UHGV virus genome: UHGV-0145877
Direction: 5' to 3' (one strand)
From: a virus
DNA length: 25,947 bases
Shown here in pieces: positions 461 through 24,699 of this stretch. The number at the start of each line of letters is the position of its first letter. The stretch's first letter is position 1. The position numbers were made by a program, and so were the translations under genes. Below the pieces are notes generated by a model. It made no database searches. It saw only the letters and a program-made list of their open reading frames with translations, and had not been told where the DNA came from.

Positions 461-1660
461 ATGGTCGTGAGCGTTTTTATGTTTGACTTGACGTTTATTA
501 TCTTTATTTTATCTTCCATCCCTGTATTTTTTGTTTTTTGGATTGCCGGAAGGTTTAAGAATGAATTAGTTGCAGACTCTTCTTTTGGATTGCGAGGTGA
601 TGACAATTTATCTTGCCTCAGGGGGTTGGCGGCTGTCATGGTCGCCCTTCACCATTCAGTATATATGTTCAATTATCTTTATCATGATAAATGGAGTATA
701 TTTTTGAATGATGGATTTGCGGCGAAGTCAAGCAACAATAGTTTATTGGCCATTGCATATTTTGGCTCCATTCCAGTCATGATATTCTTTATGATTACAG
801 GGTTTCTCTTCTTTAGAAAAATAATAAACAAACCAATAAACAATGCTGCAATATTTTTGTCGGCGCGAGTTAAGAGACTAATTCCAATGTATGCATTCAT
901 GGTGCTTTGCGTTGTTTGTGTTTCTGAATTAATTCGACCCAACGATAGCATTGGGATTCACAACATTATTGTTGAAGTTGGCCGATATTTTACGTTTGGT
1001 ATAATTGACCCTAATGGCCTTACACCTTCTATTCATGGATCTTTAATCGTTGGCGGGGTTATCTGGACTCTTGCATATGAGTGGGGTTTTTATATAATTT
1101 TACCATATATCTCTATGTTCGTAAAATCAATAAGAGATGCATGTTTTTCGGTAATAATTATGCTTTTCTCGGTATTAATTGCTTACCGCCAAGAGCTTAT
1201 CAGTGAAATGTTTGCCACTCTTCTCTTTTGCTTTATTGGTGGCTTTGTTGCAGCGCTAGCTTCTGGTTACCTAAAGAACAACGCTATCAAACAAGCCAAT
1301 AGCGTAATGATGACAATTGTGTACCTTTTATCGCTTATTGCTGTCGCATACTGGCAGGACTTTAACATTTACAATGTTTACATAGTGATTCCGCTATTTT
1401 TGTTTTTTTTAAGTGCGTGTACTGGCTCCAAAGCTTTTCAAATTATAAACACCAAGTTCTTCAAGGTGGCGGGTTCTGTAAGTTACAGCATTTATTTGAT
1501 GCATGGCTTAAGCATGGTAATGACCTTTAATTTCATTTCAAGCTCATTAAACTATACTGAGTTTGCAGCAATATCTTTATCAATTTGTGCAATGATAAGT
1601 TGCTTAACTTACTTATACATTGAAAAACCCGCAATGAAAAAACAGTTTAAAAACAATTAG
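461..1660 (+). CDS. Acyltransferase family 3 integral membrane protein (O-antigen or other surface polysaccharide acetyltransferase-like)
   Basis: 399-aa, highly hydrophobic, multi-helix ORF with an N-terminal motif LRGLAAVMVALHH typical of acyltransferase-3 enzymes. Strongly AT-rich relative to the phage structural genes and on the opposite strand. True start may be the ATG at 479 (MFDLT...). Confidence 0.7.
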   Translation: MVVSVFMFDLTFIIFILSSIPVFFVFWIAGRFKNELVADSSFGLRGDDNLSCLRGLAAVMVALHHSVYMFNYLYHDKWSIFLNDGFAAKSSNNSLLAIAYFGSIPVMIFFMITGFLFFRKIINKPINNAAIFLSARVKRLIPMYAFMVLCVVCVSELIRPNDSIGIHNIIVEVGRYFTFGIIDPNGLTPSIHGSLIVGGVIWTLAYEWGFYIILPYISMFVKSIRDACFSVIIMLFSVLIAYRQELISEMFATLLFCFIGGFVAALASGYLKNNAIKQANSVMMTIVYLLSLIAVAYWQDFNIYNVYIVIPLFLFFLSACTGSKAFQIINTKFFKVAGSVSYSIYLMHGLSMVMTFNFISSSLNYTEFAAISLSICAMISCLTYLYIEKPAMKKQFKNN

Positions 1661-4708: not shown

Positions 4709-5061
4709 TACGCCTCCGATGTAACAGTCGTTATTCCATAGAGAGTGTCGATTTCAGCGGAAAACATGACACGTCGGGTCGTGGTATCCACCGTCGTATT
4801 GAAAGAGAGGATTGATTTAACGCCCCGCGTTTCGAGGATGCGCTTACGGACGGCCAGGTTGTAGGTTTCCGGCTTCTGCTTACCGAGTACGGACTGGATC
4901 CACGGAGTCCCCTCGGTGGTGTCGAGAAACCATTGCCCATACCACAATTCGAATCGCGTTTTTACCGCCTGTGCCACGGCATCCGGTGAGTTAATCAGCC
5001 AGGTGTCATCACCGCTGCCAAAGGTGTAATCGCCATCGGCGTCTTCACGTCTGTATCGCAT
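4708..5061 (-). CDS. Baseplate wedge protein (gpW / gp25-like)
   Basis: 117-aa ORF between the spike and J-like genes, overlapping both by 1 nt. Confidence 0.5.
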   Translation of the reverse strand: MRYRREDADGDYTFGSGDDTWLINSPDAVAQAVKTRFELWYGQWFLDTTEGTPWIQSVLGKQKPETYNLAVRKRILETRGVKSILSFNTTVDTTTRRVMFSAEIDTLYGITTVTSEA

Positions 5062-5813
5062 CAGTTTACCCCGTCGGTACTGCTTCCACCGCGCTGAACA
5101 CCACCATGAGTGTGCGTATTATCGATTGGCTTGCCGTTAGCCTTCACGCTACCCAAAAACTCAACAACACCAGTGATTTTTGAAGCCACACCAGAAACAA
5201 CAGACCCCACCATGCCCCCCATCCAGGTTAACAGGCCATGAATGGTTACTTTCTCAGAAAAATCAGCCAGAGGGGCAACCACATCAAGACCACCCGGAGC
5301 GACAATTTTAATTTTCCTGGTATCAGGATTAAGCTCAAAATAGGTGCTGCCATCGTCACTACGCAACTGTGTGGCACTGGTATTAATACCGCTAATCTTC
5401 CTCGCCTGCGACTGGGGGCCTACAATACAAAACGCATCCGATAAATCATGCATTCTGTCATCGACCGGTTCCTGTATTCCGCCGCTCTGCCACCAGAAAT
5501 CAATACAACGATCGGCAAAAACGACAAGACACTCATCCCCGGCTTTAATCGGAAACGTTAGCGTACATCCTCCGCCACGTGGGAATACCACTGGAACATC
5601 CACCAGCAATGGGTAATTTTTGGTAATGCGGTTGCCGTCATTATCCTTTTCAACCGAACGGATAGCAGGCTGCACAACCGCCGTCACCGCATCAGGATCG
5701 AATGACTGAATAATGCCAGGCAAGGCGACTCGGATCTGATTCTTTGTTGTTTCCCGTTCAGATTTGAATGTTTCGGCAAGGTCGCCGCTGCGGGTCTGGT
5801 CAGATACTGCCAT
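5061..5813 (-). CDS. Baseplate spike / assembly protein V-like
   Basis: Probable start is the ATG at 5813 (MAVSDQ...) with a GGAG Shine-Dalgarno 8 nt upstream; the ORF-track start at 5834 is a TTG inside the terminator A-tract. Gly-rich C-terminus typical of spike proteins. Confidence 0.6.
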   Translation of the reverse strand: MAVSDQTRSGDLAETFKSERETTKNQIRVALPGIIQSFDPDAVTAVVQPAIRSVEKDNDGNRITKNYPLLVDVPVVFPRGGGCTLTFPIKAGDECLVVFADRCIDFWWQSGGIQEPVDDRMHDLSDAFCIVGPQSQARKISGINTSATQLRSDDGSTYFELNPDTRKIKIVAPGGLDVVAPLADFSEKVTIHGLLTWMGGMVGSVVSGVASKITGVVEFLGSVKANGKPIDNTHTHGGVQRGGSSTDGVN

Positions 5814-5832
5814 TTGGTAGGCTCCAGAAAGC

Positions 5833-5861
5833 AAAAAACCCGCCGAATGGCGGGTTTTGTT
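5833..5861. terminator. Rho-independent terminator (bidirectional; strong on the minus strand)
   Basis: aaaaaa cccgcc gaat ggcggg ttttgtt: 6-bp GC stem (5839-5844 / 5849-5854), 4-nt loop, flanked by an A6 tract and a T-tract. On the minus strand the hairpin is followed by TTTTTT, 20 nt downstream of the stop of the 5878-6273 gene. Confidence 0.75.
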
Positions 5862-5877
5862 AATTCACTGAATGAGT

Positions 5878-6273
5878 TTAAACAGCTTCATCAGTCTTCA
5901 TTTTTTCCCACTGAGAAAAAATAGTCTTAACCTCTAAGAGAGATTGCTGTGCCATTGCTTTATCTATTGCACAGCTAGTGAGGTCATAATCTGCTTCATT
6001 TCGAGCCAGTCTCTGTTGCTCAAGTTTGTAAGCCATGGATTTTAGGCTTAATGGATCATATGGCTCCAGTTTGTTTTCACTCTTATTTTTAAGATAAGAG
6101 ATAAGACTGGAATGATGATCCTTCGTATAAGCAGGAAGACTGGTCAGATTCTCTTTTATTTCATGGTAAAGCGCATAATATGCCCGCGAAATAGTATTAC
6201 GATAACCAACTTCAGAATCCTCCGCAAAGCAACGCTCCGCTGAAGATAAAAACTCAGAGCTAGTTATAGGCAT
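5878..6273 (-). CDS. Hypothetical helical protein, possibly HEPN-like (second gene of the AT-rich cassette)
   Basis: 131-aa ORF overlapping the upstream gene by 14 nt and followed by a strong terminator. Helix-forming sequence with SRAYYALYHEIKENL, HHSSLISYL and RLARNEADYDL segments that resemble the helical layout of HEPN-type domains. Not confirmed. Confidence 0.6.
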   Translation of the reverse strand: MPITSSEFLSSAERCFAEDSEVGYRNTISRAYYALYHEIKENLTSLPAYTKDHHSSLISYLKNKSENKLEPYDPLSLKSMAYKLEQQRLARNEADYDLTSCAIDKAMAQQSLLEVKTIFSQWEKMKTDEAV

Positions 6274-7030
6274 ATTTACACCCTTTCAAGCTATTTCTTT
6301 CAACGGAAAAACGTGCAATAAGATTGCAATCATCAAGTAAATCGATTGAACAAATTTCATCTGCAAGTCGCATATTCATTGCAACCACCTGTTCAGGGGA
6401 TGCATTAACTACCTCAACCAGATAAGTCCCACCAGATGCACCGTTGATGTCAGCACGATATTCAGTTGGAGGGAATTCAGCCATGACTCTATGAACAGCA
6501 AGAGCAACTTGCATGTATTGTTCTGAAGAGCATCCTGACTTTTTGTATGCTTCATCCATATCGTGAATTACCTCCTGCAAGAAGGCTTCTGCGTCATCCC
6601 TATGTTCTTCTTGGGATAACATTTTGCAATGACGTCCAAAATATTCTACGCATTTTGATAGTTTCCCTACCAAATACGCAACGCCACCAGCCCTATAAGT
6701 AAACCACTTGGTTGGATACTTATCAGCTAAAGAATAGATGTAGTAGTCCGATTTTTCGAGTAGAGAAAAACGCTCAAGCAGCTTACAAAAAATCCGCGCA
6801 AAGTTAACATCAGCATGTGGGAGGATAGCTTCAAGCATTTCAATCCCGACACTCACATCACCTTTAGCAATATGAGCCAAAGCTACAAGCGTGTCAGCAG
6901 GCGGAGTACGCTTAGAGCCATACTCCGAGACCACCTCTCGAAAGGTCCAAATATCAAGAGGTTGACCACTATTGATTATCTTAACCAACTGGTCAAAACG
7001 CTCTTCCGCTTTCAGTTTTGGTCTTGCCAC
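6260..7030 (-). CDS. Hypothetical protein (first gene of the AT-rich cassette), function unknown
   Basis: 256-aa soluble ORF with a GTG start at 7030 and no in-frame ATG upstream. Preceded by a sigma70-like promoter. AT-rich versus the flanking baseplate genes. No motif I can assign. Confidence 0.6.
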   Translation of the reverse strand: MARPKLKAEERFDQLVKIINSGQPLDIWTFREVVSEYGSKRTPPADTLVALAHIAKGDVSVGIEMLEAILPHADVNFARIFCKLLERFSLLEKSDYYIYSLADKYPTKWFTYRAGGVAYLVGKLSKCVEYFGRHCKMLSQEEHRDDAEAFLQEVIHDMDEAYKKSGCSSEQYMQVALAVHRVMAEFPPTEYRADINGASGGTYLVEVVNASPEQVVAMNMRLADEICSIDLLDDCNLIARFSVERNSLKGCKYAYN

Positions 7031-7059
7031 AGTACGCTCGCTACTTATCTTTTGGTTGA

Positions 7060-7089
7060 ATTTTATGTTCGCGTATACAGTTTAGTCAA
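7060..7089 (-). promoter_or_regulatory. Candidate sigma70 promoter for the 6260-7030 / 5878-6273 cassette
   Basis: Minus strand reads TTGACT (7089-7084), an 18-nt spacer, then TAAAAT (7065-7060), about 30 nt upstream of the GTG start at 7030. Confidence 0.45.
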
Positions 7090-7126
7090 TCCGAAGCTCG
7101 TGCTGTTGAGCCGTTTCGCACAAAAT

Positions 7127-7145
7127 CATCCTTGCAAAAAGGATG
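7127..7145 (-). terminator. Candidate intrinsic terminator after the secreted-protein gene
   Basis: catcctt gcaaa aaggatg: 7-bp stem, 5-nt loop. On the minus strand it lies immediately after the stop at 7151 and is followed by ATTTTGTG. Confidence 0.4.
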
Positions 7146-7150
7146 GGACT

Positions 7151-7492
7151 TCAACCATCAACCTTTTTACACGGGAAAGATCCGATGATTTTCGGTGCAT
7201 CCATGCTGTTCTGCAGAAGCTGGACGTTCAGGAAACGCGTTTCGGTGCCAGGGCGACGAATGTATTCAAAGCCATAATTGTTGCCATCTTTAGCAGGCAT
7301 AAGCCCCATATCAATCTTAATGCCATCAGCACCAAGATTTGTAATTTTCTGCGATGTGACGCGTTCACCGTTAATCATGTCCATTTCACCCAACCTTGCA
7401 GTGATGGTGTAAGGCCCACAATAAGCGGTGTACCCGCTTGCTGATGCCCCAAATGACATAAAGGCAACAATTAAAATGGCTAAGGCTTTCAA
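7151..7492 (-). CDS. Small secreted (periplasmic) protein with an N-terminal signal peptide; accessory gene
   Basis: 113-aa ORF; MKALAILIVAFMSFGASA-SG is a classic Sec signal peptide with an A-S-A cleavage motif. Begins 2 nt after the baseplate hub gene ends. Somewhat AT-richer than its neighbours. Confidence 0.6.
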   Translation of the reverse strand: MKALAILIVAFMSFGASASGYTAYCGPYTITARLGEMDMINGERVTSQKITNLGADGIKIDMGLMPAKDGNNYGFEYIRRPGTETRFLNVQLLQNSMDAPKIIGSFPCKKVDG

Positions 7493-22184: not shown

Positions 22185-22736
22185 TTAGCCCATCATTTTT
22201 CTATACGCCTCTGCAGCCTGCTCCGGCGTTAAGTTGGTAATTTCTGTTCTGACTGGTCCTCCATCAGCGCCAGTCACTTCATTTTTGACGTTGTCTTTAA
22301 ACGCCTGAACAGAAACATGACGCCCAAGCAACTCAAGGTTTTTAACCTTATCAGGCCATTTGATTTTCTTCAGAAGTGCGGCGCTATCTGCGGATACCAT
22401 CTCCACGACATCCATTCCTGATAGCGTTGTGCGCCATACCTTAGGCCAGTCTTTAATGGGTTTTAGCTCACCGTTTTGCAGGAGAATGTCGAGCACATCC
22501 ATCTGGTCGATTTCAAGAAGGCGATTAAGTACGTATTCTGCATTTATTCCAACAGAGTCATTGCGTTGTGCTTTCAATTCGGAGATTCTGAATTGTATGT
22601 CAGGTTTTGACATGTTTTCGGACGCAGTACGGTTGGCTGTCTTTGCGCTGTACCCCGCCCGAATAGCCGCTTGCGTGGCGTTTAAATCGATGAGGTACTC
22701 GCGACAGAACATTTCTTGTTTGTCAGTGAGCGCCAT
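22185..22736 (-). CDS. Terminase small subunit
   Basis: N-terminus [30 protein letters not shown] is the characteristic small-terminase helix-turn-helix motif. AGGGGA Shine-Dalgarno upstream of the ATG at 22736. Confidence 0.75.
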
Positions 22737-22763
22737 ATTTTCCCCTGCTGATAAGGTAAATAA

Positions 22764-23288
22764 ATGAATCCTGAAATTTTTGAATCAAAGTTCATAATGA
22801 ACGAAGCAACTTGGCAACGAATTGAAAGGTTAGTAAATACTGAAGATGATATTGGTTTGGTTTTAAGAGTACATCTGATTACAGAAGCAATGATTGAGGC
22901 ATTTTGTTGCGCCGCTGTAGGTAACCAAAATCTATTTGATGGATTTGGTGAAAACTTAACCATGACCTATGCCGCAAAAATTCAGCTAGCTGCCAACCTC
23001 GGCCTAAATGAACACTCCGTCGCAGAACTTAAACGCCTAAATAGAATAAGAAATGTTCGCTCTCATCAAATAGACAACCCGGAAATAACTGACGCAGAAA
23101 TTGAATCATTACGAACATTTATTAGCCGAGGTGGTCAGGAAGATCTCATTAACTCAGCAAGATTCGGCATAAAAGTTGGAGACATTGAGCTGAATCTTAA
23201 CCGTCCAGATGCCAATAATCGTGAAAAATTCATAGCTATTCTTGGCAGCATCATCCTAAGGCTCACTAAACAAGTTGCAGGACAATAG
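22764..23288 (+). CDS. HEPN-motif protein (putative Abi-like RNase), lysogen-expressed accessory gene
   Basis: 174-aa plus-strand ORF, antisense to the late operon. R-x4-H motif (RNVRSH, R96 to H101, nt 23049-23066) within a predicted helical protein. Clearly AT-rich. ATG at 22764 with TAAGGT 8 nt upstream. Confidence 0.6.
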   Translation: MNPEIFESKFIMNEATWQRIERLVNTEDDIGLVLRVHLITEAMIEAFCCAAVGNQNLFDGFGENLTMTYAAKIQLAANLGLNEHSVAELKRLNRIRNVRSHQIDNPEITDAEIESLRTFISRGGQEDLINSARFGIKVGDIELNLNRPDANNREKFIAILGSIILRLTKQVAGQ

Positions 23289-23869
23289 AGATCATTGACT
23301 GAGCTAATTGATTGTTTTAGCGCATAAACCTATACCACAAAATAGCCACTTATCACGCTTCATCATTCAATTCTGGCGTGAACTGTATGCGCCTCACATT
23401 GTCGGGAGAGAAATACAGTCACTCTCCCGTCTCGATCACAAGCGGCACAAAGCCGTTAACCAACTCATGCTGAAATCGTGACGTCTTGCTCGTAACGGTT
23501 TCGCCTGTTTGGGTGGTTAACGTGATTTGGTAGATGTTGGACATTGAGAATCTCTTTATCCGCTTGTGGGGATATCAGTTAAGTTATCCCGTGTAGGGTA
23601 TAAGCCATTGTCGAGACCACTCATTGAATGGACTCTGCAATAACCGATGTCTTTCCATCAGTCCGCCACCACAAAGAATCTTTTTTGCCATAAGGCAGGA
23701 GGTTCATCTTTCAGTGGCTGCCAGTGTTATTTCCCCACTTACTGGCTTGGGTTGCTTCGCGGTACTGCCGTAACTGGTTACCCAGAATAAATTCCGGTTT
23801 CATTATCAAGCCCACCCGTAAATGGGCTTTGTAATGAAGAGTTGTTATGAAAATTGCTCTAAACAAGCA

Positions 23870-24358
23870 TTAATAGCCATCAGAAGTAATCGCTACAGAT
23901 TTCAATCCCTCAATGTCATCCTTGGACAGGGCGAACCATTCACCGTGCTTTCTCTTTGCGGCAAATTTGCGATGAAGCATGTTTTCAGTTTCTCTTCCAC
24001 CAGGGATCAGGCACTCAAGCTTCAAGCAGTCTGGTCCAGAGTTGCCAAGCGATTTGATGCGTTGTGGAATGTTGGATGAATACCCAATTTTGGTTAGCCC
24101 AGTTTTCTTCGATGACAAAACGTATACCTGAGGAGGTTCTTTTCTCTGGTCTTCCATTACACGTCTCATTGTTGCCATAAGTCCGCCGTGCATCAGCATT
24201 TCAACAAAGAACGCTGACCGAACACCTGACGACTTAAGCATGCCAGAAAATTCACTTGCCAATTCCATTAACTCTGCGATGTTTTCAGGAACTTTTTGGC
24301 AGTTATCTTCCTTGTATAAGGAAATCATTCTTTGAAGCTTTTCTTCTAATTGGTTCAT
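23870..24358 (-). CDS. T5orf172-like (GIY-YIG-like) domain protein
   Basis: C-terminal region VYVLSSKKTGLTKIGYSSNIPQRIKSL...HRKFAAKRKHGEWFALSKDDI resembles the T5orf172 domain. Probable start is the ATG at 24358 (AAGG Shine-Dalgarno); the ORF track extends to a GTG at 24514 with no Shine-Dalgarno. Confidence 0.5.
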   Translation of the reverse strand: MNQLEEKLQRMISLYKEDNCQKVPENIAELMELASEFSGMLKSSGVRSAFFVEMLMHGGLMATMRRVMEDQRKEPPQVYVLSSKKTGLTKIGYSSNIPQRIKSLGNSGPDCLKLECLIPGGRETENMLHRKFAAKRKHGEWFALSKDDIEGLKSVAITSDGY

Positions 24359-24699
24359 AGCGTCTTTACCTTTTAGAAAGTGAGCCTGTCTCACAGAAAA
24401 GCCGCCCGAGAGAGGTTGCCACCTATAACGGCATTTCTCAGGCTCACTTACTGAAAGGCTCTCGTTAATATGCGCGTGAGATGCGCGGTTTACTGCAGAT
24501 GTAAAAAGCCCCACAAATGCGAGGCTAAATCCTGGTATTTGTAATGACTGGCTCTTATCTCAACGCGGCCCCTTACCGCGCGCCAGATGCTCAATCTCAA
24601 GCATCAGCAATGAGATGTTTAATCTGGATTCACTCCAGAAGTGATCACCACCCTGTCTACAGAGCCAGATGTGAAGGATGATGAGTAAAATTATCGCTA

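Follow-up and report, generated by a model that had tools for sequence, protein, structure and literature searches.

A candidate two-gene HEPN system in a cargo slot of the baseplate operon of a SEN34-like prophage

Bacterial immunity repeatedly makes use of HEPN RNases as effectors, as exemplified by Cas13, Csm6, AbiV, HepS, Tha, and RemAIN, and new HEPN-based systems are reported regularly. These systems differ, usually most interestingly, in how the nuclease is restrained and switched on. In the HepT/MntA pair, the tyrosine that directly follows the HEPN motif is the modified position. The present analysis concerns a pair of adjacent genes, designated A and B, in the virus genome UHGV-0145877, the whole analyzed stretch of which (25,947 nucleotides) is referred to as the window. 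A and B constitute a genuine candidate for an uncharacterized two-gene HEPN system, composed of a small HEPN protein (B) and a TPR-like partner (A), and they reside in a genuine cargo hotspot between baseplate genes.

Several described systems resemble this pair in one respect or another. In MNT-HEPN (minimal nucleotidyltransferase-HEPN) pairs, the gene of the neutralizing partner is situated upstream (PMC3710099). The AF0298-like HEPN-T domains and AbiV retain the arginine of the HEPN motif and have an aspartate in place of its histidine; a second conserved histidine, in the insert that separates helix 2 from helix 3, is proposed as the residue that completes an alternative active site (PMC3710099). 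AF0298 is among the closest structural homologues of AbiV, which is a proven anti-phage RNase (bioRxiv 10.1101/2024.05.05.592566). HEPN genes can also share an operon with a gene for TPR or Sel1 repeats, as for LA2681 and AbiU2 (Anantharaman et al., 2013, Table 1; PMC3710099). Among temperate phages, HepS, a HEPN tRNA anticodon nuclease, is expressed constitutively from Gifsy-1 and is switched on by tail-tip proteins (PMC13043305), and Tha of Staphylococcus aureus prophages is a HEPN abortive-infection protein activated by tail proteins (PMC11087260).

Taken singly, the A and B proteins of the window gave no significant match in Pfam or NCBIfam, and both fall into PHROGs families of unknown function (phrog_5176 in the case of B). 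The relatives of B point to a HEPN domain. PF05168 (HEPN) is matched by 5 of 10 close and 8 of 17 broader relatives, with a best E-value of 2e-6, and it is the sole recurrent match in Pfam scans of the B family with E-values up to 0.1-1, in which neither LA2681 nor AbiU2 was detected. A profile built from the 17 sequences retrieved 9xbd ('HEPN domain-containing protein'; E-value 2e-9) and AF0298 (2hsb; E-value 8e-6) from the Protein Data Bank (PDB). These 17 sequences are 24-50% identical, and E21, R25, S29, R30, Y32, Y33, H37, P47, H54, L84, R91, D95, and Y96 are invariant in their alignment. The motif of B reads R91-N-E-A-D95-Y96, with the arginine kept and an aspartate at the position of the canonical histidine. 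B also has a pair of histidines, H53/H54, in which H53 aligns with the histidine of 2hsb and the invariant H54 with that of 9xbd. Because R91, D95, and H54 match the pattern described for the AF0298 variant (PMC3710099), the motif of B is of this variant. PDB entry 9xbc is the protein of 9xbd with a phenylalanine at the tyrosine equivalent to Y96, and the depositors appear to have mutated this residue; no paper on 9xbd was found in the literature search.

The AlphaFold2 (AF2) model of B is all-helical (helices 5-18, 21-44, 53-65, 74-94, and 105-127), with a pLDDT of only 75. In the fold search proposed in the initial annotation, the top Foldseek matches of the model in the PDB are HEPN proteins (2q00, 2hsb, 1wty), all of these matches being weak with E-values above 0.1. 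The assignment therefore rests on sequence, which places B in the AF0298-like HEPN-T class of HEPN domains. B is most likely a dimeric RNase, with a predicted active site composed of R91, D95, and Y96 together with the alternative histidine H54.

The AF2 model of A is confident (pLDDT 88, pTM 0.84). TPR-like repeats (about residues 1-140) are followed by two long helices (144-184) and an alpha-beta-beta-alpha-beta domain (about 187-245). The N-terminal half is built of tandem helix-turn-helix repeats that wind into a right-handed superhelix, the arrangement by which TPR repeats are defined. For the C-terminal domain, a profile search of the PDB gave designed helical repeats only, which were judged spurious, and Pfam gave nothing consistent. 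The initial annotation had recognized neither protein as a member of a known family; this view is superseded, as B is a HEPN domain and the N-terminal half of A is TPR-like.

When 1.8 billion representative proteins were searched exhaustively with a profile, only 83 relatives of A were recovered, and the architecture is fixed, because nearly all of them are 245-270 aa long. Across 54 relatives no column is invariant; N219 is the sole polar position conserved at 75% or more, the other conserved positions being occupied by L, A, G, Y, F, or M. Judged from these sequences, A is probably a scaffold-type protein and not an enzyme. The two halves of A evolve at different rates, with a mean pairwise identity of 26% in the N-terminal half and 36% in the C-terminal domain, and a ratio of nonsynonymous to synonymous substitution rates (dN/dS) of 0.107 and 0.051, respectively. 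DNA-binding domains of the helix-turn-helix, ribbon-helix-helix, and AbrB types were looked for in A and none was detected, the sole MazE-like match having an E-value of 0.24.

A and B form an obligate, mobile pair that is found in at least five different phage contexts. In 19 of the 19 loci recovered by similarity, a B-type open reading frame (ORF) directly follows an A-type ORF in the same order, and this order recurs in five distant representatives and in three further versions from the baseplate slot described below. The two proteins co-diverge. The pair occupies the baseplate slot in Escherichia coli and Rosenbergiella and, as indicated by protein matches, in Salmonella and Klebsiella. 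It is situated between the replication genes and the Q antiterminator gene in a lambdoid early region of Lelliottia, between the tape measure and gpM genes in lambda-like siphoviruses, between the attachment site and the integrase gene in a P2/186-like prophage, and near portal and anti-repressor genes in a prophage of Yersinia pekkanenii. It is also present in Klebsiella phage ST405-OXA48phi1.3 (MK416008). In that record, an intact B gene lies at L031:4749-5144(+), where two small ORFs in other frames have been annotated instead. An island of a lambda-like prophage that carries A-B (L029:6213-6864(-)) also holds HicAB, KilA-N, Bro-N, and Arc-like genes, and on account of these genes the position between tape measure and gpM is considered to be a cargo slot as well.

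Three diverged versions of the pair exist in the baseplate slot of E. coli: the window type in 10, the F11 type in 27, and the WAT type in 33 genomes. All versions together, A-B occupies this slot in 70 of 5426 complete E. coli genomes; a scan of species-representative genomes gave one locus only. The RefSeq annotation of the F11-type cassette contains the upstream 257-aa gene only, and the intact B gene, at L033:1016-1411(-) in NZ_CP076123 and likewise in 26 other genomes, is unannotated.

The site of the cassette is a true cargo hotspot in the baseplate operon. Prophages of this type were collected by BLAST of the flanks (353 E. coli genomes), and just 10 of these 353 genomes with matching flanks carry the window-type cargo. 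With loci that carry other cargo, homology breaks off at 5856-5858 on the left and at 7149-7160 on the right, mostly at 7153, which is the stop codon of a 113-aa gene. The survey of related prophages that had been proposed in order to look for different cargo brought to light at least eight other types between identical breakpoints. The slot is occupied elsewhere by a 190-aa protein with a YafO-family toxin, a DUF4282 protein, a DUF2335 membrane protein, a 241-aa protein encoded in place of the 113-aa gene (OkiPb01676), a 111-aa plus 170-aa pair (E. coli strain 48), and a 184-aa plus 56-aa pair. In phage SEN34, it holds two small genes unrelated to A and B. The 170-aa protein of the 111/170-aa cargo (L032:1014-1526(-)) contains RNNLFHG, which resembles the canonical HEPN Rx4H motif and makes it a candidate only; a sequence search of the PDB with this protein gave no match. 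The 113-aa gene is itself mosaic, as only its C-terminal ~48 aa are common with a 77-aa protein of SEN34, and APEC-O117H42 has a 153-aa gene in its place. The 113-aa product has no match in Pfam or PADLOC. No published description of the slot was found in the literature search.

The cassette is thus a horizontally acquired accessory unit and not a structural component. It shows variable cargo between fixed flanks, a deviant guanine-plus-cytosine (GC) content, and an internal, conserved promoter-like site, with the terminator provided by the slot. The initial annotation had described a moron, a self-contained acquired unit with its own promoter and terminator. The accessory nature holds, both in the variable slot and in unrelated phage contexts; an own terminator does not.

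The window is a prophage of a SEN34/Brunovirus-like myovirus. Its genes are arranged in the order Dit-like, Pam3-gp18-like plug, hub, 113-aa gene, cassette, spike, sheath initiator, baseplate J, and DUF2612 (see Table 1 for the features around the slot). Both ORFs of the cassette stand exactly as first annotated, in coordinates, start codons, and overlap, and the RefSeq calls agree; in E. coli O127:H6 E2348/69, RefSeq lists both coding sequences, each as a 'hypothetical protein'. The placement of the cassette between hub and spike is correct on the spike side and needs amendment on the hub side, where the 113-aa gene intervenes. The Rosenbergiella orthologue of the hub matches PF22759. The true start of the spike gene is the ATG at 5813 and not the TTG at 5834. 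As had been noted, the cassette is richer in AT than the flanking structural genes, its GC content of 0.411 being 9-12 points below the 0.499 and 0.534 of the flanks. A GAAAGGG Shine-Dalgarno sequence at 6281-6287 precedes the start of gene B by 7 nt, and the overlap of the two genes has the same length in the Yersinia, Rosenbergiella, and F11 versions; overlap and Shine-Dalgarno sequence suggest that A and B are translationally coupled. In comparison with the 85%-identical version from avian pathogenic E. coli (APEC), gene A has a dN/dS of 0.080 and gene B one of 0.054, at a dS of 0.8-1.0. Genes A and B are real and are held by purifying selection.

Table 1. Features of the A-B cassette and of the slot that contains it, in window coordinates
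Feature	Position	Strand	Remarks
Gene A	6260-7030	(-)	256 aa, GTG start
Gene B	5878-6273	(-)	131 aa, ATG start
Overlap of A stop and B start	6260-6273	(-)	14 nt, ATGCCTATAACTAG
Cargo-specific segment	5859-7152	(-)	1294 bp, GC 0.411; limits are the ends of homology to loci with other cargo
Predicted sigma-70-like promoter, TTGACT-18-TAAAAT	7060-7089	(-)	inside the cargo; predicted transcription start near 7053
Intrinsic terminator, hairpin and T-tract	5829-5858	(-)	left boundary of every cargo type
113-aa gene, 5' of the slot	7151-7492	(-)	its own stop codon is the right slot boundary
Baseplate hub, E217-gp41-like, conserved upstream flank	7495-8556	(-)	E-value 7.8e-5, below Pfam's cut-off
Baseplate spike, gpV-type N-domain and Apex motif, conserved downstream flank	5061-5813	(-)	

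The sigma-70-like site lies where the initial annotation had put it, with the same hexamers and spacer. It agrees with the consensus at 10 of 12 positions and is the top-scoring site across 4 kb. By itself the site is not significant, because six promoter-type sites are found in the region and 5.8 are expected from shuffled sequences; what supports it is conservation among homologous cassettes, from which a promoter is predicted. A 33-nt block with the site recurs unchanged in the 85%-identical APEC cassette, amid sequence that varies. The cassettes of Rosenbergiella and of an IMG/VR sequence (L019), whose proteins are 43-44% identical to those of the window, have TTGATA-18-TAAATT at the same distance of ~30 nt from the start codon. 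A search upstream of the Lelliottia, Yersinia, and WAT versions gave no such site. Upstream of the Rosenbergiella-type site, repeated GTCAAC/GTCCAC motifs (AGTCAACTGAAGTCAACCGGAGTCCACTGACGTCCAC) are present (L006:7880-7920, L019:2810-2850), which could be a candidate operator; no equivalent of these repeats was seen in the window.

The terminator has a 10-bp stem (5858-5835) followed by a T-run, with a folding energy of -17.7 kcal/mol (z -5.1; 0 of 200 shuffles equal). The arrangement AACCCGCC-loop-GGCGGGTTTTTTGCTTTCTGGAGCCTAC-ATG, the ATG being that of the spike gene, is kept in eight loci with seven different cargos, and the loop alone varies, its 4-nt sequences being ATTC, ACCC, ACTT, TTCG, and GGAT (window, L002, L003, L004, L021-L024). 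As read from these alignments, the hairpin and the ribosome-binding site of the spike gene are a fixture of the slot and not a property of the cargo. The strong hairpin reported earlier is thus present, and only its attribution to the cassette has to be withdrawn, since it sits in the flank common to all cargos. Rfam gave only sub-threshold leader and small RNA matches on the hairpin and no antitoxin-type RNA family. A second hairpin, at 7127-7145, folds no better than shuffled sequence. The strong terminator stands just 5' of the spike gene, so late transcription would read through it or restart downstream.

On balance, the reading that we favor is a toxin-antitoxin-like abortive-infection (defense) module, in which a HEPN RNase effector would be paired with a TPR-like inhibitor and sensor. 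The broader claim, that a HEPN toxin is restrained by a protein partner, can be made with good confidence. A and B would be co-transcribed in the lysogen from the predicted promoter of the cassette and translated in a coupled manner, and transcription would end at the slot terminator. The conserved C-terminal domain of A would bind B and silence it, and the faster-evolving TPR-like N-terminal half would bind the trigger, for which a protein of the infecting phage is the most likely candidate. On infection, A would be titrated or lost, B would cleave RNA, growth would stop, and the incoming phage would fail. The RNase activity and toxicity of B, the interaction of A with B, the trigger, the expression in lysogens, and the anti-phage effect are proposed because of the general role of HEPN domains, the upstream position of the partner gene, and the precedents of HEPN proteins in prophages. 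No publication on the A-B pair was found in the literature search. A bolder version, which is put forward tentatively and with the balance against it, would make A-B a new minimal two-protein phage sensor, an NTPase-free TPR-like receptor for a phage structural protein that gates a non-canonical HEPN RNase via a novel alpha/beta docking domain; the three versions in the slot would then be selected specificity variants, and the slot an unrecognized defense hotspot of SEN34-like prophages.

Several observations weigh against a defense module. B lacks the histidine of the canonical Rx4-6H motif, so that its activity would hang on the proposed alternative site, and the match of its model to the HEPN fold is weak, both in Foldseek E-value and in pLDDT. 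The PADLOC search proposed in the initial annotation was run against PADLOC-DB v2 and returned no significant match, with nothing for A and only a marginal HEPN_IX match for B (E-value 0.009). The two halves of A differ only modestly in how far they have diverged. Lacking a DNA-binding domain, A is not a classical autoregulating type II antitoxin. The promoter-like site is found upstream of only five of eight homologous cassettes, and the cassette is oriented as the late tail genes, so that late transcription is also possible. Finally, the other cargos of the slot are mostly of unknown function, which makes the label of a 'defense' hotspot premature.

A plain addiction module, with B as the toxin and A as a labile antitoxin, would stabilize the prophage or simply be selfish, with no anti-phage role. 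It shares with the defense module two apparently coupled genes with the partner upstream, and it would fit the YafO-family toxin pair found in the same slot of other prophages and the HicAB genes that adjoin one A-B homologue. We regard it as unlikely, since type II antitoxins typically have a DNA-binding domain and A does not, and since a simple antitoxin would be expected to be smaller than this repeat protein of 256 aa; moreover, the two readings overlap, because many prophage toxin-antitoxin systems have proved defensive. The missing motif histidine of B could also mean that A-B is a non-toxic accessory pair, in which the HEPN domain would serve as a ligand- or protein-binding module, as in sacsin and the C-terminal domains of nucleotidyltransferases, and the pair would act, for example, in counter-defense, lysogeny control, or a superinfection exclusion that needs no cleavage of RNA. 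For many HEPN-T domains, a substrate-binding role is assumed (PMC3710099), and the orientation of the cassette is that of the late operon. However, B keeps eleven mostly polar residues invariant across relatives that are no more than 24-50% identical; R91, D95, Y96, and H54 are among them and can be aligned with the alternative active site proposed for AF0298, and 9xbc and 9xbd differ precisely at the tyrosine equivalent to Y96, apparently mutated by the depositors. A non-toxic role is accordingly rather improbable.

Two further explanations were rejected. Under the first, a cryptic HEPN-MNT (type VII) system, Y96 of B would be modified by a degenerate nucleotidyltransferase formed by the C-terminal domain of A. 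This would agree with the position of B in the nucleotidyltransferase-associated HEPN clade, with its invariant tyrosine right after the motif, and with a gene A that is upstream, as MNT genes are. Yet the 54 relatives of A have neither a G[SG]x9-13Dx[DE] motif nor conserved acidic residues, and the C-terminal domain has no Pfam or PDB match to any nucleotidyltransferase, which leaves this explanation very improbable. That A and B are conserved baseplate proteins with a structural or assembly role, as their location between the hub and spike genes on the same strand would allow, is hardly tenable in the light of the comparative data. Only 10 of the 353 matching E. coli prophages carry the pair, SEN34 has no counterpart and, like other relatives, has unrelated genes at this position, the pair is also found in siphovirus, lambdoid, and integrase-side contexts, and its GC content departs from that of both flanks.

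If the pair proves to be only an addiction module or inert, the locus is a case of ordinary prophage mosaicism. In the A-B pair, an AF0298-type HEPN domain is joined to a kind of partner that has not been described for this class, in which catalysis is for the most part still presumed. The family, small and compact (1.2 kb), is present in the well-studied strains E2348/69 (enteropathogenic E. coli) and F11 (uropathogenic E. coli), so that it is easily testable. A slot with exact breakpoints could also be mined in the way of the P2 and P4 hotspots.

Elsewhere in the window, an AT-rich Acyl_transf_3 gene (461-1657(+), GC ~0.35) lies on the opposite strand and adjoins a tail-fibre assembly gene; it has the usual look of an O-antigen-modifying moron. 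At the end that matches this part of the window, E2348/69 has intS and tRNA-Arg instead. A second patch of low GC content (0.39-0.42) occurs at about 22600-23400, between the ORFs 22185-22736(-) and 23870-24514(-).

Among known systems, A-B resembles HEPN-MNT (HepT/MntA, type VII) in being an adjacent pair with the partner upstream and the small HEPN protein downstream, and in that B is of the nucleotidyltransferase-associated HEPN-T clade (PF05168; 2hsb, 9xbd) with an invariant tyrosine beside the motif. The difference is in A, which consists of TPR-like repeats and an alpha/beta domain without catalytic conservation and is not a minimal nucleotidyltransferase. B shares with AbiV of Lactococcus the AF0298-like variant of the HEPN domain, in which the motif histidine is missing and an alternative histidine is present (PMC3710099), whereas it is unmatched by the PADLOC models of AbiV, and AbiV is neutralized by an RNA (type III) and not by a protein partner. 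HepS and Tha are likewise HEPN effectors encoded by accessory genes of temperate phages. However, they are single, self-sensing proteins with the canonical Rx4-6H motif, in contrast to the obligatory separate partner and non-canonical motif found here. LA2681 and AbiU2 are similar in that a HEPN gene is paired with the gene of a helical-repeat protein, although they are other HEPN families with canonical motifs, and neither has an experimentally defined mechanism.

The slot itself is comparable to the defense hotspots of P2 and P4 (Rousset et al., 2022), which likewise have fixed breakpoints in conserved phage genes and interchangeable, AT-rich, often defensive cargo. It differs in belonging to another phage lineage, in its position from baseplate hub to spike, in the conserved terminator hairpin at its boundary, and in a cargo that is mostly of unknown function. 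DS-28 of DefensePredictor, a validated two-gene system of E. coli, also combines a small HEPN protein (163 aa) with a larger partner (252 aa), whereas its gene order is reversed, its HEPN protein has the canonical RNSVAH, and its partner seems unrelated to A when compared by eye, without alignment. A-B is distinct from HEPN-MNT, from classical type II toxin-antitoxin systems, from the systems in PADLOC, and from DS-28.

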